Shown here: positions 3,062-38,598 of the stretch, one piece after another
How the letters are laid out: every line of letters begins with the position of its first letter
Numbering within the stretch: position 1 is the stretch's first letter
NCBI GenBank assembly: GCA_947629225.1
Contig: CANRCY010000001.1
Coordinates: 1 to 38,598 of the forward strand
Direction: 5' to 3'
Source: an uncultured Clostridia bacterium
Lineage (GTDB): Bacteria > Bacillota > Clostridia > Christensenellales > Borkfalkiaceae
DNA length: 38,598 bases
Translations under genes and position numbers: made by a program
The notes under the pieces: model-generated
Seen by the model: the letters and a program-made list of their open reading frames with translations, nothing else
What the model was told of the DNA's origin: nothing
The model's database searches: none

Positions 3062-3281
3062 AAATAAGGTAGAGATTTCTCGGCAAGCTCGAAATGACAT
3101 TTGGGAAATAAGGTAGAGATTTCTCGGCAAGCTCGAAATGACATTTGGGAAATAAGGTGGAGATTTCTCGGCAAGCTCGAAATGACATTTGGGGGATAAG
3201 GTGGAGATTTCTCGGCAAGCTCGAAATGACACTTGGGAAATAAGGTAGAGATTTCTCGGCAAGCTCGAAATGACACTTGGG
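3062..3281. repeat. tandem array of five head-to-tail copies of a 44-bp unit
   Basis: The unit aaataaggtagagatttctcggcaagctcgaaatgacatttggg starts at 3062, 3106, 3150, 3194 and 3238. It carries a few point variants (gtagag/gtggag, gacattt/gacactt). There are no spacers between units. The array abuts the mnmG start codon. Confidence 0.95.
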
Positions 3282-3316
3282 AAAGGAGGGGGCGAAAAAG
3301 GTCCCCCCTTCCCTAC

Positions 3317-17642: not shown

Positions 17643-18952
<1,310 letters not shown>

Positions 18953-18953
<1 letters not shown>

Positions 18954-19345
18954 TTTCGCGAAAAATCTTGCTATGCAATCTTTTTCGCGAGGAAATGAGC
19001 GTTGGCGGTTTAACTTTCTTGTCCTCTCGGTCGTTTCATCGGGCAAGAAGTTGCAAGAGTGCAACAAATGTTGTCGCGCAGCGAAGAAGCGTGGTTCTTC
19101 TCGCGCAAGGGGATTATAAGATTTCGCGAAAAATCTTTTGCTTCGCAAAATCTTTTTCGCGAGGAAATGAGCTTTGGCGGTTTAACTTTCTTGGTCCTCT
19201 CGGTCGTGTTGACGGACAAGAAGGCAAAAGGTTTTGCCAAATTGGGTCGCCCACGGCGGAAGTGAATTCCGCCTAAGGCAAGAGGATTATAAGATTTCGC
19301 GAAAAATCTTGCTATGCAATCTTTTCCGCGAGGAAATGAGGGTGC
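18953..19345. repeat. tandem repeat of about 170 bp, 2.4 copies, each starting with a long hairpin
   Basis: gatttcgcgaaaaatcttgctatgcaatctttttcgcgaggaaatgag starts at 18953, 19120 and 19293. The first two copies continue with c(g/t)ttggcggtttaactttcttg(g)tcctctcggtcgt. The copy tails differ, but each contains two further hairpins. Confidence 0.85.
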
Positions 19346-21220: not shown

Positions 21221-21910
21221 ATGAAGCATAAAATCATCGCGCTTGCCGCCGTCGCCGCGGCGATCTGCATGGCGGCGGGGTTTGCGGCTTGCAAACCGCA
21301 GGGGACGGAGCCCGAACACGAGCATTCTTACGGGGATTGGATCAGCGGTCCCGAGACCCATTGGAGAGAGTGCGAGACCTGCCACGAGAAATTCGCCGAG
21401 GCGAAGCATTCCTACCGCAATGTCGTAGGGCAGAATTATACGGTCTATCTGAACGGCAGTATGCCGAACCCCATATTGAGGCTCAGTGCGGAGGGGAGTT
21501 CCAATGAGATCCTCGTCAAGGAAGTTTGGGTGTGCGTCCAATCGGAAACGGCTTCGCTCCGCGTTTCGTACTCCGCTTCGGAGGGGGGAACGTTCGCAAG
21601 CAATGCGGAGATCCCCGCGGGAAGCAGCGGTTGGACGAAAGCGGGATTCCCCGCGGCGGGAATGCTGCTCTCGGCGGCTTCCTATTTCCGTCTGGATGCG
21701 GTCGGCAGCGATATTACCGTTCAGGAGATCGTCTTTTTGGGGTGCCGCACGGGCGCGGAAGAGGAGCTCTTCTTGCTCACGCCCGAGATCGTGGGCGCGA
21801 CGGGGCAGGAATACAACCGCCAGAAGGGGCTCATCGACGCGCAACAGTTCCCCAACGAAAAGAGGGAATGCTATCTGTGCCACTACCCCGAGCCCAAGAC
21901 GCAGGAGTGA
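21221..21910 (+). CDS. predicted lipoprotein, 229 aa, function unknown
   Basis: The signal peptide MKHKIIALAAVAAAICMAAGFAAC has a lipobox-like FAAC. It is followed by a His/Cys segment (EHEHSYGDW...HWRECETCHEKF...HSY). Codon usage is host-like. Confidence 0.8.
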   Translation: MKHKIIALAAVAAAICMAAGFAACKPQGTEPEHEHSYGDWISGPETHWRECETCHEKFAEAKHSYRNVVGQNYTVYLNGSMPNPILRLSAEGSSNEILVKEVWVCVQSETASLRVSYSASEGGTFASNAEIPAGSSGWTKAGFPAAGMLLSAASYFRLDAVGSDITVQEIVFLGCRTGAEEELFLLTPEIVGATGQEYNRQKGLIDAQQFPNEKRECYLCHYPEPKTQE

Positions 21911-21920
21911 GTTGATTGGG

Positions 21921-22046
21921 TGGAGATGTTTCGACTGCGGCTACGCCTTCGCTCAACATGACGTATTTAACCCCTCAGTCTCGCTTTGCTCGACAGCTCC
22001 CCTATAGGGGCGCCAAGGGGAAAGCCCGACAAGGGGCGCCAAGGGT
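21921..22046. repeat. interspersed hairpin-repeat modules
   Basis: gagatgtttcgactgcggctacgccttcgctcaacatgac lies at 21923-21962. cccctcagtctcgctttgctcgacagctcccctataggggcgcc lies at 21971-22014. These are followed by aaggggaaagcccgacaaggggcgccaaggg. Confidence 0.8.
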
Positions 22047-22077
22047 TTTAGAATTTTGAGAGAGAAGAAACAACCGA

Positions 22078-22195
22078 ATATCTTTGGGGCGGAGTGAAAG
22101 TCTCCACCGGCAGTAAAGTCTGCGAAGGGCGCACGGCGCCCCCGAGCGGGTGAAATTCCCGCACCGACGGTCATAGTCCGGATGAAAAAAGAAAT
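22078..22195 (+). promoter_or_regulatory. FMN riboswitch (RFN element) aptamer
   Basis: cuuuGGGGCGGAGUGAAAGUCUCCACCGGCAGUAAAGUCUGCGA...GGGUGAAAUUCCCGCACCGACGGUCAUAGUCCGGAUGAAAAAAG matches the conserved RFN core segments (GGGGC.GGGUGAAA.UCCC.ACCGGCGGUA ... CCGAC.GU.A.AGUC.GGAUG). It lies directly upstream of a RibU-type riboflavin transporter gene. Confidence 0.85.
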
Positions 22196-22201
22196 TTTTT
22201 T

Positions 22202-22252: not shown

Positions 22253-23005
22253 ATGAAAACAAAGAGCAGATTTTTCAGCACGACGCGGATTGTGATGATC
22301 GCGCTTTTCGGCGCGCTTGCGGGACTTTTACATATCGCGAAGTTTCCGCTCCCGTTCGCCTTCCCGGGCTTTTTGGAATTCGATTTTTCAGACATTCCGC
22401 TCTTTATCGGCACTTTCGCGCTCGGACCCATCTCCGGGTGCTTGATCGTCGTCGTGAAACTGCTGGTGAAACTCGTCTGTATAGGGACTTCCAATATGTT
22501 CGTCGGGGAACTCGCAAATCTTTTGATCGGGTTCGGTTTCGTCATTCCGGCGGGGCTCCTCTACAAGCGTTTCCGCACATGGAAGGGCGCTTTGCTCGCC
22601 ATGGGCGTCGGGACGCTCTCCTCCGTCGCGGTCGCCATCCTCGCGAACCGCTTCCTCCTCATTCCCTTCTATGTAAATATCACCTTCCAAGGGAATTGGG
22701 AACTCTTGCTCGACCCGATGCAAAAATTGTTCCCGAGCATCACGCAGGCGACGTTCTATCGGTTTTATCTCTGGGTCTCCGTTCTTCCCTTCAACGTGAT
22801 GCGCTGTCTCATCGCGGGGGTGGTGACCTTTGTCGTTTACAAACACATCTCCCGTTTTATCAACCGCATCGGCGAACGGCTCGAACCGAAGGGAGGGGAC
22901 GAAAAGGGCGTCCGCACGCGAGACGTTGTCGTGACCGCCGTCTGTATCGCCGTCGTGTTGTTGCTCGTCCTCTTTGCGTTGCTCCGCTATTTTCTTTGGG
23001 AATAG
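22253..23005 (+). CDS. ribU: ECF-transporter S component for riboflavin (RibU-like), 250 aa
   Basis: The polytopic membrane protein contains LHIAKFPLPFAFPGFLEFDFSDIPLFIGTFALGPISG, which resembles the RibU/YpaA N-terminal region. It is FMN-riboswitch controlled. Confidence 0.85.
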   Translation: MKTKSRFFSTTRIVMIALFGALAGLLHIAKFPLPFAFPGFLEFDFSDIPLFIGTFALGPISGCLIVVVKLLVKLVCIGTSNMFVGELANLLIGFGFVIPAGLLYKRFRTWKGALLAMGVGTLSSVAVAILANRFLLIPFYVNITFQGNWELLLDPMQKLFPSITQATFYRFYLWVSVLPFNVMRCLIAGVVTFVVYKHISRFINRIGERLEPKGGDEKGVRTRDVVVTAVCIAVVLLLVLFALLRYFLWE

Positions 23006-28119: not shown

Positions 28120-28620
28120 CGCGTGGGGATCTCGCCTTTGCCCACGGTGGGGGTTAAAAATGCGGAGCCCCCTTTCCCCCTCGCTTTGCTCGGGTACTTT
28201 CCCCCGCTTCGCGAGGGACAGCAAGCACCCCCACCACCGCCTGACGGCGGAGCCGCCCCCTTCAAAGGGGGCAGCTCTGTGCCCACCCCGATGGAGGGGG
28301 GGGAGGGGTGTGGGGCGGATTCTAAATACGTCACCCTGAGCCTGTCGAAGGGTGTCCGCTTTATAATGAGGTCATGTTTCGACTTCGGCTACGCCTTCGC
28401 TCAACATGACGTAATTAGAATAATGTGGAGATGTCTCCACTGCGGTCGACATGACAGTTGAGGAACCCCTCAGTCACTCACTGCGTTCGTGACAGCTCCC
28501 CTATAAGGGGCGCCAAGGAGGCGGATTCTGATTACGTCACCCTGAGCTTGTCGAAGGGTGTCCACTTTATAATGAGGTCATGTTTCGACTGCGCTCAACA
28601 TGACGTGATTAGAACAGCGT
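28120..28620. repeat. dense cluster of interspersed hairpin-repeat modules, including a ~100-bp direct duplication
   Basis: The two direct copies ggcggattct.a.tacgtcaccctgagc.tgtcgaagggtgtcc.ctttataatgaggtcatgtttcgac...ctcaacatgacgt.attagaa lie at 28314-28420 and 28520-28614. Also present are gagatgtctccactgcggtcgacatgac (28428-28455) and cccctcagtcactcactgcgttcgtgacagctcccctataaggggcgcc (28466-28514). Confidence 0.85.
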
Positions 28621-28671
28621 GTTAGAACGTGCTTGGACGGAGCAAGATTCCCTCGGGGAGTGGCTGTTCGG
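28562..28671 (+). repeat. left copy of the imperfect direct repeat flanking the giant-gene locus
   Basis: The hairpin module is followed by aacgtgcttggacggagcaagattccctcggggagtggctgttcgg (28626-28671). By my count this matches 38553-38598 at 40 of 46 positions. Confidence 0.75.
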
Positions 28672-28836: not shown

Positions 28837-29021
28837 ACCCATGTACACTTAGCGGATTATACCTGCTGAGGGTCTGCAATTTCATACGATAGATACGATC
28901 TCGGTCCGAATTTTTTGCAAAAAAGCGGAAACGCACACCCCGAAGCGGTGATGTTTTTCTGCCGACTTCGGGTATTTCTGTCATTTTTTTCAAAAAAGTT
29001 TCCTTTTTTGATTTTAATTAC

Positions 29022-29050: not shown

Positions 29051-29124
29051 GTAGCCCGAGGTGTGGCATAAGCCCTTTTATGTGCACTTTTTAAGGTAAG
29101 AAAAATAAGGAAAGGAGAATCATT

Positions 29125-32100
29125 ATGGAAAGACAATCAACCAGTAAGCTTTACAGAGCCCTGATTGCCGTTGTGGCTTTCTTTGTGCTTTGCACGTCTG
29201 CCATATTGTTTGCTTCCTGCGGGACTAACCCTCTCGAATGTGAGCATACATACGGCCCCGGCGATGTAAAAGAAGTCAGAGTAGCCGACTGCGGCAACGA
29301 CGGCACTGTTACTTACGAATGCTCCAAGTGCGGCGCTCTCGTAACCGTTACGGTTACGCTTGCGACGGGCGAACACGAGATCGTGAACGGCCGTTGCAAG
29401 AAGTGCGGCGCTACGGGCACGGAAGGCAGTTTGACGCTTGCCGATCTGAAAGCAGACCTTACGTCGATCCTCACCGCATTGAATACCGTTGCGGGGAAGG
29501 CTGATGTAGATAAGGTTGCAAGCTCCGTCGTTGAGGCTCTCAAGAACCCCGATACGACGATCCCCAACCTCTGGAAGCTTTTGACCGATATCAGAGATAA
29601 CATCGCGGAGCTTGACTTCGGCGACATCGAAATTATCGACGACGGCGAGACCACCACGCTCGGCGCGGTCATCGCTTCTCTGTACAAGCAAGTCAACAAG
29701 CTCTATGTCGACCTCACCGACGAAGGCAAGAATACGGACGGTCTCTATGACCTGCTTGTCGGCGTTGGCGGAACGGGTACGCAGGAACACGTGCACAACT
29801 GGGTGCTCGAGCTCAAGGATCCCGACAGCTACAGCTGCACCGAGCCCAACATCTATGTCTGGGGCTGCTCCTTCTGCACTGCAACGAAGGGCGAGGAAGT
29901 CACCGTTATGGCGACCGGTCACGCAACCGAGTTCGAGACGGGCAAGACCGCAGCAGGTCACCATTACGACGCGACCTGCATTTCCCCTGCACGCGTAGAG
30001 GGCTATTGCCACAACTGCGGCGAGTGGACCGGCGAATGGACGACCCAGGGTCAGCCTACCTATCAGCACCACTATGTGCTTGAAACGGGCACTGATGCTG
30101 ACGGCGAGACGGGTGCCAAAGGTTCCTGCACTTCCGTTCATAAGAACGTGTACCACTGCGAGACCTGCGGCGGCGCTTACGTCGAAGAGACCACGGGCAG
30201 CTCGAACGGTCAGCACAACTACTACTATGTTGCGAATGAGGATGGCACCAACAAGCAGCCGATGGAGGATAAGGATAAGATCGCTGTTTGGAATAAAGCT
30301 CATCCCGATGACACGATCACCGATCTCAGCGAGCTCACCGTGAGTGAGGAGCAAGAACTCAACGAACTTCTCAAAGAAGGTCGTCTTGAGGATGGTCGTG
30401 TTTACGCGCTCAACGTTGTTTACTATTCCGCTCCCAACTGCGTCGATCCTGCGCTCATCGTTGTCGAGTGCATGGAGTGCGGCGTTCGCTATGCGTACAC
30501 CTTCGGTCAGCCCGACGGACATCACTTCATCCTTGTGCATGAAGAAGATGCTGCGACCTGCACGATGGATGGCGTGAAAGAGTACTTCTACTGCGATCAC
30601 TGCGGATATTTCTTCTTCCTTGACGGAATCAATAATGGCGACCTTGTCGAAATCTCCACCGGCACCTTTGCGGGGCACAAAGAGTTCCCGGCAACCGCCA
30701 ATCTTGGTTCCAAAGAATATACGAGAAACTACATGACCGACCTTGACGGCAAAGTCATCAACGACAAGACGAACAAGGCGCTCGAAAATCAAGCCGCTTA
30801 CGATGTTGCGACCGACGGCGCTCCCGCGCTCGGGCACGACTATGTGGTCGTTTACACCAACAACCGCAAGTGCGTCACCGCGCAGGACTACATCCTTGTC
30901 TGCCAGCGTAAGGGTTGCTTGGCGCATGACGGTACCACGGAGTTCAGCTCTCTTGTTAAAGTTGAGGGCGAAACGAAAGCTACCGACAGTACGGCTCTCT
31001 TCTATCAGGCTGTGAAGAATGGTCCTTACTTCCTGAAAGGACTTACGGGCGACAACACGAAGTCCGTGCTCGACGTTTTGCTTGCAACCGTCAATGAGAC
31101 GGCTGACGATACTGCCGATACGACTTCCGACCTCACGAAGGAATGGGAGGCGATCAAGGACGGCGAAAGAGCCGATGTGTTTATTTGGCTTGCAGAGCAC
31201 GGCTATCTTGTCCGCGACTCGTTAGACGATGAAGTCTTCGGAAGCATCTCCATAGATGACACGAAGAAGTGGTACGATGCGGAAACCGGCAAGCTCACGG
31301 ATGACGCTAAGACCGCAATCGATGAGTATCTTGCCAAGCTCGACGCGCTCCAGGAAGGCGAATATGACGGCGAATATGACCTTGCGAAACTTTACAACGG
31401 ATACAGCAAGGCGGAAACGGGCACCACGACGAAGACGAAGGTCGCAAGCAACGTTCTTGTCGGCTTCGAACTTCCCGTCACGGGTCACGCGTTCAACGAT
31501 TACTTTGTGACCGTTGTCGGCGGCTGCACGCTGTATGAACGTCACGTTCGCTTCTGCGCTGTCTGCGGACAGTACACGGCTACGCCGAGCGAGACGACCG
31601 GTGTATGGCCTTACGTTGTGAGCGGCGATACCGATGCGTCCCTCCTGAAGGGCGGGGATAACGACCTCGAAGCTTCTTGGAAAGCTGTTTTGGAAGCAGC
31701 AGAGAAAGCTGACCCCCTGGAGAGCCCGATGATGGTAATCAATTGGCTTGCGAAGTACGGTTATCTGAACGATTATCGTGACTGCGCCGTTACGACGCCG
31801 ATCGACGGGCAAGAAATGTACCGTATCGGAACCCGCGTAATGGATATTATTGGGGCGAAGGACGAAGAAGACGACGACTTCGACGCCCTCGAATATCTTA
31901 CCGGGTTCTATGGAAAGAATGTTCTCCCCGAATTCAAAGTTGATGTGAAGTTCGGGAAGAGAGACACTATGGAAGACGAAGAGCTTCCGGTCTATGTGGC
32001 AGACGACAAGCCCGTCGTTCTCGGACATACCTTCGACGCAGTGACCCTGCTCAGCGAAGAAGTGTGCGACGCTCCCGGCAGATACGTTTACGTCTGCTCC

Positions 32101-35100
32101 AAGTGCGGCGACCCGCTCAACACCAGCAAAGGCACGCTCAAATACATGAGCGGCAGCGCGACGGTGGATACGGGGCTCAAACTCGTTGAGGATCCTATCT
32201 TCAAGTCCGAAGAGTACATTTTGAAGGCTTCCGCTCAGGCATCGCGCCTCGCTCAGGCGACGGATAAGCTTGACAAGTCCGACCTTCAGAGACTCTATGA
32301 AGATGTTGAGAATGTCGGCGACAATATGTTCGATTGGCTCCTTGAACACGGCTATCTGAACAACGTCATCGATACCTACTACACCGTTGGTTACACCGAT
32401 GCGCAGAAGGCGCTTCACGGCGGCTGGCTCGCAGATAACATCAAGAAAGCCGGCGACGATACCAACGCTATCGAAGGCAGCATCCAGGAATGGTATAACA
32501 CCGCCCGCGCTAACTTCTATGACGAAAACGGCGCGCTCAAAGAAGCGGCTGTCACCGAGCATAAGGAATATTTGAAGGCTCTTGCGCTTAAGCTCCTCGA
32601 CGGAGAGAATCCCGATATCACGGATTACTACGAGAAGAGCTCGAACACGTACAGGACCAATCCCGAAGATCCCAAGACCGAGGTCAAGGATCTTCCCGCG
32701 AACAAGACCATCGACGACGCGGCGACCGAAGTTCCCATGTCCGGACATCTCTATGCCTATGAAGACGGCACCCGCATCAATCTGAGCGAGAACGGCGACG
32801 GTATCTGCACAGACTTCCGCAGCAAAGAAGTGCTCGAGAAGTACTATGCAAAGAACGTGATGATCTATTGGGTCGAGCCCGCGCTTGTAAACGGTGCGTT
32901 TAAGGCTAATCCCAACTACGACAAGAACAGCGACGACGTCAAGAAGTGGGCTCCTTATGCCACCGCAGACGGCAAGCCCGCAGGTTGGGTCGTATTGACG
33001 GATAAGGAAGGCAACCCTGTTGAATTCGATCCCGCGGACCTCGATCCCGACTTCGTCGCTCAGGTCGCTGAGTTCGGTATTGTCGGCGCGTGCATGAGAG
33101 AGAACTGCCCTTATCACACGAAGTACGACAAAGCCGCGCATACCTATGACAAAAAGGATGCGAAGGCGAACGGCTTCACCGCAGGATACCTTGCGGCAAC
33201 CGATCACGTCAAGGTCTATGAGAAGTATGCGGTAGATGGCAACACGAAACTTCCCATCGAATCGAGAGTTGACACGATCGGCGGTAAGAAAGTCTATTAC
33301 AACTACAAGAAAGTTGAAGAGTACATGGTCGTAGAATCTGCGAAGTACTTTGCAGAAGGCGTAGGCGGAACGGGTACGAACTACGAGAGATGGACTGCCA
33401 TCGCCAGCAAGGCAGGTTTGGATAAGACGGATGAAACCCGTACCGACGAGACCGAGAAGGCGAACTACAAGATCCTCTATGACGCCGCTACGGCTGCCAG
33501 AAACGACGATCTCCACAACCTCTACACCTTGCAGTGGATCTGGAACACTCTGTTTGTTCCCGCCGATTGGCTGACTCCCGAAGATAAAGATACTGCGGCG
33601 ACCCGCCAGGCAATGTATCCTACGCTTCCGATCAAGGATGAGACCGGCAAGGTTCTTACCACAATGAGAAAGCAGGTCCTGCGTCTTCAGACGTTGTTCC
33701 AGCAAGCAGGCGTGCGCTATCTTTGGAGAGAAATTGAAGGTCGTCCGGGCGAATACGTCTCCGCATGGCGTCCTCTCACCGATAGCTTTATGCCTTCCTG
33801 CTGGGTATCCTTGCGCTGCAAGTGGTACAGGTCGACGTCGGATCACAAGTGCACCTATATCGACCCGACCGTCAACCACGACTGGCCTTACTACGGCGAG
33901 TTTGACTACGATACCCATGCTGCAAACTGCAAGCATCCCGACCTCTGCAACACCTGCGGCAAGGAAATGGGTAGATTCGGCGATCACAAGTTGATCCAAG
34001 TCGATCCCGGCAAAGACAATGCGCTGAACAGCCAGAGCATGAAAGCCGCTTGGATCGAAGTGCTCAAGCACTACAAAGAAATCGATTGGCTCAAAGACAT
34101 CATTTGGGTCGACGAAGCGAACCTCTCCGTTAACAACTGGTCTACCTGCTGGAAAATTCTTGCAGATACCTGCTACGAAGGCGAGACGGTAGAAGGCGTT
34201 GCCAATGTCGGCAAGGAAGACGGTCACAAGATCTATGTCTGCTCGGGCGAACTCGAAGTCATCTACAACGAGATCGTGAATCCGATCGAACAAGCCGCGC
34301 AGACTTGGGAACAAGTCGTCGGCGAAGGTCTCGATGTTGAATGGGATGTTGCTTCCGCGGCAGACGCGAAGGACGGCAACTACTTCGTTGCAACCATTGA
34401 CAATGAAAAGCACAACTTCGTGACGCGCTACTACGCATTGAGAGACTTCAAGTTGAACGGCGTTGAGTACAAGAAGGATCAGCTCCTTGCGGCGAACGAA
34501 GACGAATGGAACGAGAAGTTTGCGTTCAGCGAATTTGTCTGCCAAGGCGGTTACTACACCTTGGACGTCTGCACCCACATCAAGCGCGATACCGCCCACA
34601 TCGCGGAAGGCGAAGGCGCTTGCAAGCCCGGTTGCGAACACGAGTGCGGCAAGGTCGAAGAAGGCAGCAGAAGAGATTATCCGGCCGCAGGTCATTTCCT
34701 TGCACCTGTTGAGAATTACTGGACGTATGCCGAAAGATACACTCCTGCATCGGCAGAGCACAATGCGAGCATGATCCAGGTCTGCGTCATCTGCGGCGTA
34801 CGCACCCAGAGCAGAGAGTACGGCGTTACCGACGACGGTCAAGATCACGAACAGTACAACATTGCAACGAAGACGATGATCGATCGTTGGAACGAGCATG
34901 TCGAAGCTTACAACAAGAAGGTTGACGAGAGCCTCGGCGATCTCGAAGAAGGCGAAGATCCTGTCTATCTCTACAAAGCTCAGTTGCCGCTGTCCAAGGA
35001 TTTGAAGGGAACTTCGAGCAGTGGGGAATTCGAAGCGGGCGGAAAGATCTTCGGCGATGGCTTGAACGTTTACCAAGAAAGCGCTAATCTTACATTGAAA

Positions 35101-38100
35101 GGTCAGGGCGTAGTTGGTGAAACGTTCGATAGCGAAGCGACCGTTCTTGTTGCCGAAGGCAAGGAGCTCTCCTTTACGGGCACCTCGTCTGATCTCAAGC
35201 TCCACGGTACGGTCAACTTCGTCGGTGAAGGCGAAGGCGCAACGGTAGACTTCTCCGCTCTCGGCGGTATGCTGAAGGATTCGAACAGCATCCACCTCGT
35301 TTTCGAGAACATGACTGTCATCATGAACGACGAGAGTACAAGCGGGGATACCCGTATCGCTGTCGACTATCGTGGTAGCACATACACGTTCAAGAATTCG
35401 ACGATCATAAGCAAGACGATTCCTTTCGGGTTCAATGCTACGAAAAACTTGTCCGGAAATAAGATCTTTATTGAGGACAGTGTGTTCATCAGCACCGATG
35501 GTGAAGGCTTCGCGATTTGGGATCCCGAATTGACCGTTGAAGCGTCGAACAGTGCCTTCTTCGGCAAGAATGCAGGTGCATTCATCCGTGCAGGCAAAGC
35601 TACCTTCGAAGATTGCGAATTCTACACCGAAGCAGGTCAGAAGGGCGATGCGTGGGGCGATGGTTCCGACACCAACGTTTCCGCCGGCATCATCATCGGT
35701 AACTGCGAAGATAAGAAAGCGACCGATTATGGCAATGCGGAAGTTGTTCTCCACGGCTGCAAGTTCGGCACCACCACCGCCGCCAACATGGAGAACTGGG
35801 GAACGGAAGCATTCACAGCTGAGGCTTGCACTGCAGCCGATCCCGCAATCGCGGCATTCTCGTCCTCTTTGAACGAGACGAAAGTCACTCTTGACAAGGC
35901 GTCTCTCCTCAATGCGGATAAGATCGCTCCGACCCCCGGATTCAAGATGGTGGAAGGCGAGAAAGTAAGCACTCTTAAGATGATCTATCCCGAAACTATC
36001 GCAGCGACCGACCTCGGCAAAACTGCCGGTGAACAGGCTCAGAACGCCGCCAAGCTCGTTGAGAGCTTGGTCGGCGCGGGCGGCGAGATCAAACTTCCCA
36101 AGGTAGACAAGACCGGGACTGTCGACACTGTGATCGATCTGACCGGCTCGGTCGACGTTGCCGAAGGCGTGGAGACGACTGTCGACCTCGGCGGGAACGT
36201 TGTTCAGCTTGCCGAAGGCAGCACTTCCAACCATGTTGTCGGTTCCCTCAAACTGACGAACGGCACGGTCACGGGCGGCATGGATGACGCCAGGTTCTCC
36301 GACTTCGAAGTGACCGGTAGCCTCGAACTTGATGGGATCACCGCAACCTTCGATAAGGGCGGCATCGCGGCATTCGGCGCGAACGCTCAAATCGTGATCA
36401 AGAACAGCCATATTATCGGCGGGACCCAGGTCATCGCAACGAACAATGCGAAGACGCAGGGTAAGTCGATTACGATCGAGAACTCCACAGTCATCGCAAC
36501 GGCGAAATACGGTTGTGCGCTCCTTGTCAATCAGGCAGGCGTAACGGTCACCGCGAAGAACACCACGTTCTTTGGTATCGATACCGCTGTTTGGGTACGC
36601 GCAGGTGTGGCGACCTTCGATGGTTGCACCTTCGTCTCCGGCGGTTGGAGAGTCGGTGACACTGCGTGGGGTGAGGGCGCCCAGATGAAGAATCTTGCCT
36701 ATGCGGCTCTTGCAGTCGGCGAAGGCGAGGGCATGGATTATGGCGACGCTACCGTTACGGTCACGGGCGATACGAAAGTTGTCCGCGGTTGGAACAACAG
36801 CCTCGATAAGACCTATGCTCCCGATTCGGACAACACCGTTGCTTGGACGGACGCGGGCGAGATCACCTATGTGAAGAACAACGGCGAAGCTCAAGCTAAC
36901 GCTCTTTCCAAGAGATTCACCGTTGCTACCAACACCCATAACGTCACGGTTACCTTCGGCAGCAAGGCGATCGCCGATCTGTTCATGGCTCCTACCGATA
37001 TCTTTGTCGGAAAGGCGGCAACCGCTGAAACGAAGTACACCGTTGCAGGGCTCGTTGAGGGCGAAACCGAATTCGGCGATTTGAGCAAGATCACCGTTCG
37101 GTATCGGGACGGCGGCACGGATACCGCACCCGAATACAAGCCCGTTGGCGCAGGCGCGTTGACCCTTGCTAAGAGCGAAGTCGCTTCCAAGGCTCCCGAC
37201 GCTCTCAAGAACGCGGCTGAAAACGGCGGTAAGATCGAACTTCCCGCTCCTGCAAAGGCTGCAGACGCTAAAACCGTAACGATCGATGCGGCTGTTCTTC
37301 AAACTCCCGAAGCTAAAGAAGGAGATGATCCTGTAAAGCTTGAGGTGAACCTTAACGGCAACAACCTTACGATCAACGGCGATGGAGAGCACAGCGATAT
37401 CCTTGCGAACAAAGGCACGGAAATCGTGATCGACGGCGGGAACGGCGTGCTCGATCTTAAGGGCACTAAGGGCGCGAACGGTGCGGATGGTATCGGCTCC
37501 AAGCTCACCATCAAAAATACTGTTGTGAAGACGGCATCGGCGATCCAGGGTCAGAACGGCGCGGTAATCGTTCTCGAGAACACGACCGTTCTCTCGAAGG
37601 CTAAGTACGGTGTCTCCACGAACAACACCTTAGCATCCCCTGACGTGACTTATACGATCACGAACAGCAAGATCGCAAGCTATGAGACCGGTAACATCGG
37701 ACTTCTCATCAATAATGACAAAGTAACGCTTAACGCGACGGATAGCGAATTCTACGGTCTTTGCACGGGCGCATGGGTGCGTTCCGGCGTGGCGAACTTC
37801 ACGAATTGCACGTTCATTTCCGGAAGCTCCTTCACGGGCGGCGCGACATGGGGTTCCGGCACAAAGTGCCCCGATGCTGCGAAAGCTGCGCTCCTCGTCG
37901 GTGACGGTGAAGGTGTGTATGGCAACGCGACTGTGACGTTGAATGCAGGTTGCAAGGCTATTTGCTCCTTCGAGTATGACGCCACGAGTAGCAATGTTGA
38001 CGCTGCTATCGACAGTTCCGAGAAGAGCTATGTGAAGTTCGACGCAACCAAGAATTGGTTTGAATTCACGCCTTACACCGGGACCGCTCAGCACAAGCAG

Positions 38101-38313
38101 TTTGTTGTTGCGGAAGGCGGCGACCAGAAGGCAAGCGTGAACTTTGCAGACGCGACCGTTGCGGCGGCTTTCGGAATCAACTCCGCTGCCGATTTGATCA
38201 AGGCAGACACTGATACGAAGACCCAGAACGTGTTCGTTATTGGTACCGGTGCTCTTGAAATCAGCGTTAAGATCGGAACGGCAGACCCGACCGTGTTCAA
38301 AGCTGAGGCATAA
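29125..38313 (+). CDS. giant predicted lipoprotein, 3,062 aa, with Cys/His modules and three beta-helix-like units; function unknown
   Basis: This is a single uninterrupted ORF with AGGAG 7 nt upstream of the ATG. The signal peptide MERQSTSKLYRALIAVVAFFVLCTSAILFASC has a lipobox-like FASC. The strong terminator at 38399-38445 follows it. The protein sequence is non-degenerate and motif-rich, unlike the antisense shadow ORFs. Confidence 0.9.
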   Translation: MERQSTSKLYRALIAVVAFFVLCTSAILFASCGTNPLECEHTYGPGDVKEVRVADCGNDGTVTYECSKCGALVTVTVTLATGEHEIVNGRCKKCGATGTEGSLTLADLKADLTSILTALNTVAGKADVDKVASSVVEALKNPDTTIPNLWKLLTDIRDNIAELDFGDIEIIDDGETTTLGAVIASLYKQVNKLYVDLTDEGKNTDGLYDLLVGVGGTGTQEHVHNWVLELKDPDSYSCTEPNIYVWGCSFCTATKGEEVTVMATGHATEFETGKTAAGHHYDATCISPARVEGYCHNCGEWTGEWTTQGQPTYQHHYVLETGTDADGETGAKGSCTSVHKNVYHCETCGGAYVEETTGSSNGQHNYYYVANEDGTNKQPMEDKDKIAVWNKAHPDDTITDLSELTVSEEQELNELLKEGRLEDGRVYALNVVYYSAPNCVDPALIVVECMECGVRYAYTFGQPDGHHFILVHEEDAATCTMDGVKEYFYCDHCGYFFFLDGINNGDLVEISTGTFAGHKEFPATANLGSKEYTRNYMTDLDGKVINDKTNKALENQAAYDVATDGAPALGHDYVVVYTNNRKCVTAQDYILVCQRKGCLAHDGTTEFSSLVKVEGETKATDSTALFYQAVKNGPYFLKGLTGDNTKSVLDVLLATVNETADDTADTTSDLTKEWEAIKDGERADVFIWLAEHGYLVRDSLDDEVFGSISIDDTKKWYDAETGKLTDDAKTAIDEYLAKLDALQEGEYDGEYDLAKLYNGYSKAETGTTTKTKVASNVLVGFELPVTGHAFNDYFVTVVGGCTLYERHVRFCAVCGQYTATPSETTGVWPYVVSGDTDASLLKGGDNDLEASWKAVLEAAEKADPLESPMMVINWLAKYGYLNDYRDCAVTTPIDGQEMYRIGTRVMDIIGAKDEEDDDFDALEYLTGFYGKNVLPEFKVDVKFGKRDTMEDEELPVYVADDKPVVLGHTFDAVTLLSEEVCDAPGRYVYVCSKCGDPLNTSKGTLKYMSGSATVDTGLKLVEDPIFKSEEYILKASAQASRLAQATDKLDKSDLQRLYEDVENVGDNMFDWLLEHGYLNNVIDTYYTVGYTDAQKALHGGWLADNIKKAGDDTNAIEGSIQEWYNTARANFYDENGALKEAAVTEHKEYLKALALKLLDGENPDITDYYEKSSNTYRTNPEDPKTEVKDLPANKTIDDAATEVPMSGHLYAYEDGTRINLSENGDGICTDFRSKEVLEKYYAKNVMIYWVEPALVNGAFKANPNYDKNSDDVKKWAPYATADGKPAGWVVLTDKEGNPVEFDPADLDPDFVAQVAEFGIVGACMRENCPYHTKYDKAAHTYDKKDAKANGFTAGYLAATDHVKVYEKYAVDGNTKLPIESRVDTIGGKKVYYNYKKVEEYMVVESAKYFAEGVGGTGTNYERWTAIASKAGLDKTDETRTDETEKANYKILYDAATAARNDDLHNLYTLQWIWNTLFVPADWLTPEDKDTAATRQAMYPTLPIKDETGKVLTTMRKQVLRLQTLFQQAGVRYLWREIEGRPGEYVSAWRPLTDSFMPSCWVSLRCKWYRSTSDHKCTYIDPTVNHDWPYYGEFDYDTHAANCKHPDLCNTCGKEMGRFGDHKLIQVDPGKDNALNSQSMKAAWIEVLKHYKEIDWLKDIIWVDEANLSVNNWSTCWKILADTCYEGETVEGVANVGKEDGHKIYVCSGELEVIYNEIVNPIEQAAQTWEQVVGEGLDVEWDVASAADAKDGNYFVATIDNEKHNFVTRYYALRDFKLNGVEYKKDQLLAANEDEWNEKFAFSEFVCQGGYYTLDVCTHIKRDTAHIAEGEGACKPGCEHECGKVEEGSRRDYPAAGHFLAPVENYWTYAERYTPASAEHNASMIQVCVICGVRTQSREYGVTDDGQDHEQYNIATKTMIDRWNEHVEAYNKKVDESLGDLEEGEDPVYLYKAQLPLSKDLKGTSSSGEFEAGGKIFGDGLNVYQESANLTLKGQGVVGETFDSEATVLVAEGKELSFTGTSSDLKLHGTVNFVGEGEGATVDFSALGGMLKDSNSIHLVFENMTVIMNDESTSGDTRIAVDYRGSTYTFKNSTIISKTIPFGFNATKNLSGNKIFIEDSVFISTDGEGFAIWDPELTVEASNSAFFGKNAGAFIRAGKATFEDCEFYTEAGQKGDAWGDGSDTNVSAGIIIGNCEDKKATDYGNAEVVLHGCKFGTTTAANMENWGTEAFTAEACTAADPAIAAFSSSLNETKVTLDKASLLNADKIAPTPGFKMVEGEKVSTLKMIYPETIAATDLGKTAGEQAQNAAKLVESLVGAGGEIKLPKVDKTGTVDTVIDLTGSVDVAEGVETTVDLGGNVVQLAEGSTSNHVVGSLKLTNGTVTGGMDDARFSDFEVTGSLELDGITATFDKGGIAAFGANAQIVIKNSHIIGGTQVIATNNAKTQGKSITIENSTVIATAKYGCALLVNQAGVTVTAKNTTFFGIDTAVWVRAGVATFDGCTFVSGGWRVGDTAWGEGAQMKNLAYAALAVGEGEGMDYGDATVTVTGDTKVVRGWNNSLDKTYAPDSDNTVAWTDAGEITYVKNNGEAQANALSKRFTVATNTHNVTVTFGSKAIADLFMAPTDIFVGKAATAETKYTVAGLVEGETEFGDLSKITVRYRDGGTDTAPEYKPVGAGALTLAKSEVASKAPDALKNAAENGGKIELPAPAKAADAKTVTIDAAVLQTPEAKEGDDPVKLEVNLNGNNLTINGDGEHSDILANKGTEIVIDGGNGVLDLKGTKGANGADGIGSKLTIKNTVVKTASAIQGQNGAVIVLENTTVLSKAKYGVSTNNTLASPDVTYTITNSKIASYETGNIGLLINNDKVTLNATDSEFYGLCTGAWVRSGVANFTNCTFISGSSFTGGATWGSGTKCPDAAKAALLVGDGEGVYGNATVTLNAGCKAICSFEYDATSSNVDAAIDSSEKSYVKFDATKNWFEFTPYTGTAQHKQFVVAEGGDQKASVNFADATVAAAFGINSAADLIKADTDTKTQNVFVIGTGALEISVKIGTADPTVFKAEA

Positions 38314-38328
38314 GTAACACAAACAAAA

Positions 38329-38355
38329 CTTCACGCGGCGGAACGCCGCGTGAAG
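38329..38355 (+). other. perfect 12-bp hairpin immediately after the giant-gene stop
   Basis: cttcacgcggcg-gaa-cgccgcgtgaag. No U-tail follows. Confidence 0.6.
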
Positions 38356-38398
38356 GGAACAAGCTAACTACAATCTGGTTGATTGATAGTCCAATAGC

Positions 38399-38445
38399 AA
38401 GGAACTTCCCGAGGGGCAACCCTCGGGAAGTTCCTTTTGTTTGGG
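38399..38445 (+). terminator. strong intrinsic terminator of the giant gene
   Basis: aaggaacttcccgaggg-gcaa-ccctcgggaagttcctt is a perfect 17-bp stem with a tetraloop, followed by ttgttt. Confidence 0.85.
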
Positions 38446-38453
38446 AGCGTTTT

Positions 38454-38598
38454 GTCATTTCGAGTGGAGCGAAGCGGAATCGAGAAATCTCCATAATAAG
38501 GTAGAGATGTCTCGACTGCGGTCGACATGACGCGCGTTCGGGTGCGTTTTTTAACGTACTTGGACGTAGCAAGATTCCCTCGGAGAGTTACTATTCGG
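38454..38598. repeat. hairpin-repeat modules and the right copy of the flanking direct repeat (truncated by the window end)
   Basis: gtcatttcgag-tggagcgaagcggaat-cgagaaatctc (38454-38491) is the inverted orientation of the array unit arms. ataaggtagagatgtctcgactgcggtcgacatgac ends at 38531. aacgtacttggacgtagcaagattccctcggagagttactattcgg occupies 38553-38598. Confidence 0.8.

Follow-up and report, generated by a model that had tools for sequence, protein, structure and literature searches.

The stretch of DNA described herein, termed the window, comprises 38,598 nucleotides (nt) from an uncultured Clostridia bacterium and carries near its end a giant gene on the forward strand (29125–38313). 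This open reading frame (ORF) starts with ATG, contains no internal stop codon, and encodes a product of 3,062 amino acids (aa) and 328 kDa. Its ribosome-binding site (RBS), AAGGAG (29112–29117), is separated from the ATG by 7 nt and lies inside an invariant 42-nt block covering the RBS and the first codons. An earlier note, made from the sequence alone, had described just such a 3,062-codon frame with a good RBS, which is borne out. The features of the gene and its flanks given below all lie on the forward strand.

Three full-length relatives with 33–36% identity were found in a search of 5.8 billion proteins. Two further orthologs, 3,074 and 3,860 aa long, came from a scan of species-representative genomes, which yielded neither silent copies nor paralogs of the giant gene. 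The set of six orthologs thus consists of the window gene and those of the loci L001, L004, L006, L010, and L011; all six genomes are metagenome-assembled genomes from rabbit ('Lapin') gut, labeled uncultured Clostridia. Every genome holds the gene in the same slot directly after ddl, and the orthologs are full-length and colinear. One of them was found on four contigs from different samples. The earlier note had considered that the ORF might be an assembly chimera or might be interrupted in the real genome. Since intact colinear orthologs exist on independent contigs from other samples, a chimera or a generally interrupted gene is excluded—the ORF is a real gene, intact in six species.

The giant gene of L010 has a strain-level copy (L012, P0152; ENA contig NODE_4994, coverage 2.3×), which is 99.96% identical to it, with 3 mismatches in 7,091 nt apart from indels. 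The copy carries a 16-nt deletion (~13650 in L010) leading to a frameshift at residue 1218, as well as a 111-nt indel in the upstream spacer. This interruption was rejected as evidence for a pseudogene or for phase variation, as it is a single 16-nt deletion on a contig of low coverage that is otherwise nearly identical; most likely, it is an error owing to the coverage, or a rare variant or null allele. A second very large gene in L001 (24887–29099, >2,500 aa, ~5 kb downstream) was rejected as a paralog and encodes a secreted S8 subtilisin-like protease.

Modular architecture of the giant protein

The protein starts with a lipoprotein signal peptide (aa 1–32; 29125–29220) that consists of the residues MERQSTSKLYR, a hydrophobic core, and the lipobox LFAS-C32. 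It was assessed by a PROSITE PS51257-type rule in the form of a regular expression—K/R in the first 7 residues, an uncharged hydrophobic stretch, and the pattern [LIVMFWSTAG]2-[LIVMFYSTAGCQ]-[AGS]-C with the Cys at position 15–35. The segment LCTSAILFASC with Cys32, Arg3/Lys8, and an uncharged hydrophobic run conforms to this rule, as do all five other orthologs, so the lipobox-like LFASC pointed out in the earlier note stands. Cleavage by signal peptidase II and lipidation at Cys32 are predicted accordingly by the pattern. The signal peptide is the sole hydrophobic segment of the protein. SLH, choline-binding, and other wall-binding Pfam domains were not found, and a sortase-type anchor is missing, with neither a C-terminal LPXTG nor a C-terminal hydrophobic segment; a lone LPVTG at residue 783 is internal, situated within a repeat motif and far from the C terminus. 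The Pfam scan and the single hydrophobic segment, hence, agree with the earlier view that the only visible anchor is N-terminal.

The N-terminal two thirds are built around the HCCC module, G-H-x-[FYW] ... C ... (Y)-x-C-x-x-C-G, of which about 16 copies occur within residues 39–1900. The four conserved residues of each module follow the knuckle spacing H...C...CxxC. Among the six orthologs, 50 of 63 Cys are invariant at a mean identity of 34%, which bears out the N-terminal His/Cys modules noticed by eye; the N-terminal part holds 44 invariant Cys and 19 invariant His, as determined by regular expressions and the six-ortholog alignment. This number fits roughly 15 metal sites of one His and three Cys each, which would probably bind zinc.

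Starting from the N terminus, the first zinc-knuckle-like HCCC modules (aa 39–95; 29239–29409), with sub-threshold zinc-ribbon Pfam matches only, are followed by a helical spacer that varies between orthologs (aa ~100–220; 29422–29784). A tandem array of five to six HCCC modules (aa 222–500; 29788–30624) forms the best-conserved region of the mature protein. It precedes three super-modules (aa 571–1205; 30835–32739), each consisting of an HCCC module and a helical part with the motif DLxxxW...WLxxHGYL. The super-modules are homologous to one another (hhalign probability 98%; E 6e-14 and 8.5e-15). A likeness of WLxxHGYL to a peptidoglycan-binding domain was considered and rejected, as Pfam gives no support even at E ≤ 1. 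The region up to the C-terminal units is rich in Cys, Trp, and His (aa 1206–1949; 32740–34971) and contains further HCCC-like knuckles and motifs such as NLYTLQxIWNTLF and SCWVSLRCKWY. For this region, profile comparisons and library searches detected no fold and no relationship to the super-modules or to any other protein. The most distant ortholog, L011 (10001–21583; 3,860 aa), differs in length at two places: the helical spacer after its first HCCC module is enlarged to ~700 aa of coiled-coil-like sequence, and it has four super-modules, not three. The length of this region, the putative stalk, is therefore evolutionarily adjustable.

Pfam, NCBIfam, PDB sequences, PHROGs, and PADLOC have no entry that spans the protein as a whole or its N-terminal two thirds. 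Profiles of four N-terminal segments matched no PDB sequence, and curated zinc-ribbon and knuckle hidden Markov models (HMMs) gave sub-threshold matches only (DUF7479, 16 bits; DVU_1557, 19 bits; assorted zinc ribbons, E 0.01–1). Full-length matches to a characterized family, the case that the earlier note had named as contradicting it, did not appear in Pfam, NCBIfam, PDB sequences, or the search of 5.8 billion proteins. Its statement that the protein belongs to no recognizable family, hence, holds for the protein as a whole and for the N-terminal 1,950 aa, and has to be given up for the C-terminal unit, which is part of a large uncurated β-helix family. Relatives of the N-terminal region as a whole were found neither outside the rabbit-gut lineage nor in JGI metagenomes (exact 42-mer and HCCC-array profile), and literature searches returned no description of the giant protein or the HCCC repeat.

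The C-terminal part is formed by three β-helix units, namely unit 1 (aa 1950–2289; 34972–35991), unit 2 (aa 2290–2679; 35992–37161), and unit 3 (aa 2680–3062 and the stop codon; 37162–38313). Units 1 and 3 were assigned by repeat comparison and a PF13229 scan of the orthologous units. The three units are 340–390 aa long with a mutual identity of 29–40%. Their number and fold had been anticipated correctly and are supported by PF13229 and AlphaFold; only their start lies at ~1950, not at 1980. PF13229 (Beta_helix) matches 8 of the 18 units of the six orthologs (E ≤ 1; best E 8.9e-10). It does not match the whole giant protein, and unit 2 of the window reaches 23.2 bits (E 6e-5), slightly below the cut-off of 25.9 bits. 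PF20585, the 'pectate lyase-like adhesive domain', gives weak matches in two units.

The AlphaFold model of unit 2, computed from a 13-row alignment, has a predicted local distance difference test score (pLDDT) of 73.9, with 80–95 in the core, and a predicted template-modeling score (pTM) of 0.82. It consists of an N-terminal capping helix, a right-handed β-solenoid with regular short strands, and a less confident C-terminal subdomain. A Foldseek search of the PDB and the BFVD viral library with this model returned as top matches exclusively pectin-lyase–fold proteins—among them PL6 alginate lyases, GH28, chondroitinase B, mannuronan epimerase, HK620/Sf6 tailspikes, phage depolymerases, and PfbA. 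Each match is weak (E > 1e-3, template-modeling (TM) score 0.25–0.45, 8–17% identity). The right-handed β-helix or β-solenoid fold of the C-terminal units is established; a specific functional family is not.

With several enzymes at the top of this search, the protein could be a cell-bound polysaccharide-degrading enzyme, in which at least one β-helix unit, kept at the cell surface by the stalk, would attack glycans of the diet or the host as a lyase, hydrolase, or epimerase. The host community, a fibre-degrading rabbit hindgut, would suit such an activity, and so would two features that show little or no variation among 61 distant relatives of the unit: an Arg in a V/I-R-x-G rung (R2155/R2492) and the motif W-G-x-G-N (near 2176, 2515, and 2909). 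Their sharing hints at a common functional site of the β-helix family. However, the structural matches toward enzymes are all weak, and neither the protein nor its units nor the 61 relatives match any CAZy-type family of Pfam or NCBIfam. The residues invariant in the units of all six orthologs are almost all structural—G/A/F/N/C, isolated Asp, and one Arg per unit in units 1 and 2 only—with no acidic catalytic cluster among them, and the Arg is lost from unit 3 in several orthologs. An enzyme of this kind is, hence, rather improbable. The earlier note had offered an adhesin, a coat, and a glycan-binding or glycan-cleaving protein as guesses; herein, an adhesin or glycan binding is favored over cleavage because neither a catalytic family nor a conserved acidic cluster was found.

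Both building blocks have remote relatives. With the β-helix unit profile as query, HMMER was run exhaustively against 1.84 billion representatives and gave 1,111 proteins at E ≤ 1e-3, of which 569 reach E ≤ 1e-10; the exhaustive search was needed, as word-indexed searches with the unit profile and with a profile of aa 960–1950 gave one protein each. The unit therefore belongs to a large domain family that is barely covered by curated libraries. Its domain company was surveyed in 61 of the best matches, which contain SLH domains (9), DUF6562 (9), InlB-type repeats (10), and collagen repeats (5), as well as choline-binding repeats and pilin-like N termini. Catalytic families of carbohydrate-active enzymes do not occur beside the unit in these 61 proteins. 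Among 146 matches, 34 have a lipobox-like N terminus.

Three of the relatives, P0008, P0011, and P0019, are uncharacterized SLH-anchored cell-surface proteins of Firmicutes, which share the β-helix unit (E 1e-33 to 1e-48 against the unit profile) and combine three SLH domains with InlB-type repeats. They differ from the giant protein by being about 1,000 aa long, having one or two units, being anchored by SLH domains, and lacking the HCCC stalk. Both building blocks occur together in P0013, P0031, and P0065, which are uncharacterized metagenomic proteins as well. P0013 starts with a lipobox followed by HCCC modules and several β-helix units, an order of parts that it shares with the giant protein, and P0031 and P0065 consist of a single β-helix followed by 14–15 canonical HCCC repeats of ~45 aa. 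The HCCC array of the window aligns with the ~45-aa repeats of P0031 with three modules in register (hhalign 94%, E 1e-7). This likeness is at the domain level only, with BLASTP not significant, and these proteins lack the super-modules, the 1206–1949 region, the conserved leader, and the signal peptide of the giant gene. The canonical repeat (14 modules of P0031) matches nothing in Pfam, NCBIfam, or PDB sequences. The HCCC module is a repeat that is widespread yet uncurated.

A 229-aa lipoprotein encoded farther upstream in the window (21221–21910; lipobox AGFAAC) recalls the HCCC module by its H...CxxC motifs. This protein evolves fast as well, being 45–49% identical to its syntenic orthologs, with the flanking thioredoxin and tsaE at ~88–93%. 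The presence of this lipoprotein and of a VanW protein corrects the earlier statement that the giant gene is the only non-housekeeping gene in the window.

Expression signals and divergence of the locus

The giant gene is preceded by two promoters and a conserved leader. Promoter P1 (28808–28836) is a perfect TTGACA-17-TATAAT with a TG extension (12/12 match) and lies 289 nt upstream of the ATG; its distance to the ATG is 282–293 nt in all six loci. Promoter P2 (29022–29050) reads TTGACC-17-TAAAAT, again with a TG extension; it precedes the ATG by 75 nt and is likewise kept in all six loci at 72–78 nt. Between them lies the conserved 5′ leader (28843–29021), which was defined by alignments and a consensus fold and begins with a 5′-terminal hairpin (CACUUAGCG/CGCUGAGGG). 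An invariant 70-nt block of the leader (28921–28990), comprising a hairpin (28938–28972) and a U-rich run thereafter, is essentially identical in the six loci, including one whose protein is only ~31% identical. The P1 transcript could stop at this hairpin and U-rich run before P2 and, thus, be a separate RNA of about 150–155 nt rather than a leader.

The 3′ side is similarly ordered. Directly behind the stop codon follows the terminator hairpin of the giant gene itself, a GC-rich structure (38329–38355) with compensatory changes, which is kept in every ortholog with a different sequence in each. Further downstream, an element of ~80 nt (38363–38445) is composed of a small hairpin, a 17-bp terminator hairpin, and a U run. 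This 3′ element has counterparts of 88–100% identity in four other loci (L001, 19142–19222; L004, 19635–19717; L010, 19274–19350; L011, 21603–21707), with one compensatory pair in its fold; in the fifth, L006, where the contig reaches 167 nt beyond the stop codon, no match was found. The element could be a stabilizer within the 3′ untranslated region or a small RNA. Leader and 3′ element are too invariant for a covariation test, and Rfam contains no family for either; its only above-threshold match in the window is an unrelated flavin mononucleotide (FMN) riboswitch.

Compared with these flanks, the protein evolves fast. Between the window and the other genomes, neighboring housekeeping proteins are 68–90% identical and the giant protein 31–45%; giant proteins are 40–48% identical even between genomes whose murF, ddl, hydrolase, and tsaB products are 88–91% identical. 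The C-terminal part diverges most, with 7.5% invariant positions among the six orthologs versus 14% in the N-terminal part. At the DNA level, the signal-peptide codons 1–34 are 92–97% identical between the window and the four closer orthologs, as opposed to 54–64% for codons 35–68 just past the lipobox; the corresponding values for hisS and ddl are 85% and 73%. The gene has the lowest GC content (54.2%) and, with 0.66, the lowest GC content at third codon positions (GC3) of all genes in the window; in GC3, it is followed by tsaE (0.664), with most other genes at 0.72–0.81.

The sharp drop in identity at the lipobox, together with the frozen flanks and a partial incongruence of distances, leaves room for cassette-like exchange, in which the mature region would be swapped between related lineages by homologous recombination while anchored in the invariant 5′ block (leader and signal peptide) and the 3′ element; the divergence would then stem from replaced alleles and not from mutation in place. 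Such a recombining allelic cassette concerns the evolution of the gene and is compatible with any functional reading. The incongruence is seen in L001 and L010, which share the highest giant-protein identity (50.8%) at 80.5% for housekeeping proteins, as compared with 47.7% at 90.7% for L001 and L006. The low GC3 and the direct repeats resembling repetitive extragenic palindromes (REPs) that bracket the locus add to this picture. Yet, giant and housekeeping identities correlate overall (Spearman 0.81), neither silent copies nor paralogs exist in the genomes scanned, the two strain-level copies are almost identical, and selection on the expression and export signals alone can explain the invariant flanks. 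Hence, exchange of this kind is considered somewhat unlikely.

Palindromes resembling REPs or miniature inverted-repeat transposable elements (MITEs), with the core GAGAT[GT]TCTC ... TCGA[AC]ATGAC, occur in many intergenic regions of the window (3064–3300, 1312–1406, 21926–21969, 28314–28671, and 38495–38598). A 44-nt REP/MITE-like unit is present in five to six tandem copies between mnmG and dnaA. The copies at 28419–28671 and 38495–38598 are direct repeats on either side of the giant gene, at a distance of 9,927 nt from each other.

The genes upstream of the giant gene are, in this order in every genome, hisS, thioredoxin, the small lipoprotein, the S component of an energy-coupling factor (ECF) transporter, tsaE, tsaB, rimI, hydrolase, murF, and ddl, with a spacer of ~1.1 kb between ddl and the giant gene. 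In L001, the sole locus whose gene list reaches beyond the giant gene, obg is next. The window start adjoins mnmG and dnaA, which therefore places the giant gene ~25 kb from the origin region; it is co-oriented with replication. The FMN riboswitch (22076–22197, 101 bits) lies upstream of the ECF S component (22253–23005). The latter shares only ~30% identity with its positional counterparts in related genomes and, therefore, apparently was replaced. The hslU–hisS spacer (18952–19343) contains direct repeats of 45–117 nt.

Proposed function and relation to known surface proteins

The predicted N-terminal lipid anchor, the long modular, Cys/His-stabilized middle of variable length, the distal β-helices with relatives that all occur in surface-anchored proteins and show no catalytic signatures, and the fast distal evolution argue for a fibrillar adhesin, and we lean, if only slightly, toward a lipid-anchored, adhesin-like fibril whose ligand is a glycan or another polymer. 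Upon export of the precursor, Cys32 would be lipidated and become the new N terminus, which would hold the protein on the outside of the cytoplasmic membrane. The ~1,900 residues that follow may form an extended stalk of ~15 His+3Cys knuckles, helical spacers, the super-modules, and the Cys/Trp-rich region, which would carry the C-terminal end through the cell wall and beyond. There, the three distal β-helix domains—expected to be the most exposed as well as the fastest-evolving part—would bind a polymer, for which a glycan on plant fibre, on mucus, or on another cell is the most likely candidate. The two conserved sigma-70 promoters, the long structured leader, the strong RBS, and the 3′ hairpins may provide for high and stable expression. 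Two promoters and a long stabilizing 5′ untranslated region are known from highly expressed surface-layer (S-layer) genes (PMC3666127); high expression of the giant gene is therefore plausible from its dual promoters and long structured leader.

Several points weigh against this adhesin-like fibril. The HCCC modules stay below the threshold of every curated zinc-ribbon family, and extracellular zinc binding is an assumption, as is the monoderm envelope, which is taken from the Clostridia label. The stalk geometry has no usable model: AlphaFold gave a pLDDT of 38.7 and a pTM of 0.24 for aa 960–1950, which was not used and is poor because the alignment had only five rows. The codon usage shows no sign of high expression, the effective number of codons (42.9) being inside the range of the neighbors. 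The conserved Arg and W-G-x-G could mark an active site instead of a binding site. Finally, the remote relatives are all uncharacterized, with none named in any source.

The same expression signals also suit an S-layer-like or envelope coat, i.e., a major, abundant surface component that forms a protective layer via its lipid anchor without an external ligand. S-layer genes such as Lactobacillus slpA share with the giant gene two promoters, a long structured 5′ untranslated region, and an acidic, fast-evolving surface protein. In keeping with this, the locus has dual strong promoters and strong terminators, and the protein is acidic, with an isoelectric point of 4.6 and a composition rich in Ala/Thr/Gly/Asp/Val. 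The gene is a single-copy, conserved locus near the origin, outermost layers typically diverge rapidly, and the closest remote relatives of the β-helix unit contain SLH domains. However, the giant protein itself has no SLH or other wall-binding domain, its 328 kDa far exceed typical S-layer subunits (about five times the size of the slpA type, from which the predicted lipid anchor also sets it apart), and its codon bias is not raised. A coat is, therefore, regarded as unlikely.

Two further origins were rejected. A polymorphic toxin or contact-dependent inhibition system does not fit, as the C terminus is a β-helix, no toxin Pfam family matches, and no immunity gene follows (obg is next in L001). 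Likewise, PHROGs and PADLOC returned nothing meaningful in support of a phage or defense origin.

The favored adhesin-like fibril can be compared with the fibrillar adhesins described by Monzon, Bateman, and colleagues, which are defined as large, rapidly evolving proteins that have an anchor, a stalk of repeats, and an adhesive region (PMC9210967). The giant protein has in common with them the large size, the anchor, the repetitive stalk, the distal adhesive-type domain, the Thr-rich acidic composition, and the rapid evolution. Their descriptive features of length, anchor, and repetitive region are thus all present, and a rod shape is presumed. The domain-based definition, in contrast, does not apply: no Pfam adhesive or stalk domain occurs at gathering threshold, with PF20585 being weak. 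Furthermore, typical fibrillar adhesins carry a C-terminal LPXTG, whereas the giant protein has an N-terminal lipobox and, hence, the reversed topology with a C-terminal head. Its stalk modules—the HCCC knuckles and the WLxxHGYL super-modules—correspond to no known Pfam stalk domain, and its head consists of three tandem β-helices. A right-handed parallel β-helix on a Gram-positive surface is known from the adhesin PfbA of Streptococcus pneumoniae (PDB 3zpp/4mr0), one of the Foldseek matches. At ~12% identity and a TM score of ~0.38, the two share no family at the sequence level, and PfbA is a sortase-anchored protein of ~700 aa with a single β-helix.

The giant protein is, hence, best described as a lineage-restricted variant of the familiar giant adhesin type, made in part of widespread uncurated modules, and not as a new kind of system. 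That it is the first example of a distinct class of Gram-positive surface fibrils, with an N-terminal lipid anchor, an extracellular stalk of ~15 zinc-stabilized His+3Cys knuckles, and an expression module whose promoters, structured leader (perhaps a separate small RNA), signal-peptide codons, and 3′ RNA element are frozen on both sides of a diversifying or swapped mature region, is hardly probable. If true, the HCCC repeat of this class would be widespread in gut Firmicutes, though neither curated nor solved so far, and the mature region would behave like an antigenic cassette.

By itself, the locus opens no long-standing question and will be no great surprise for specialists in bacterial surface proteins. 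It is a six-species example of a conserved slot in which the protein is less than 50% identical between close relatives and the signals for expression and export are frozen. Giant surface proteins decide what uncultured gut bacteria adhere to and also rank among the main targets of phages and host immunity. Two blocks of the giant protein, the extracellular repeat of His+3Cys knuckles and the β-helix unit with its >1,000 relatives, are abundant in metagenomes and uncurated; defining the HCCC and β-helix families would improve the annotation of many surface proteins of gut Firmicutes.

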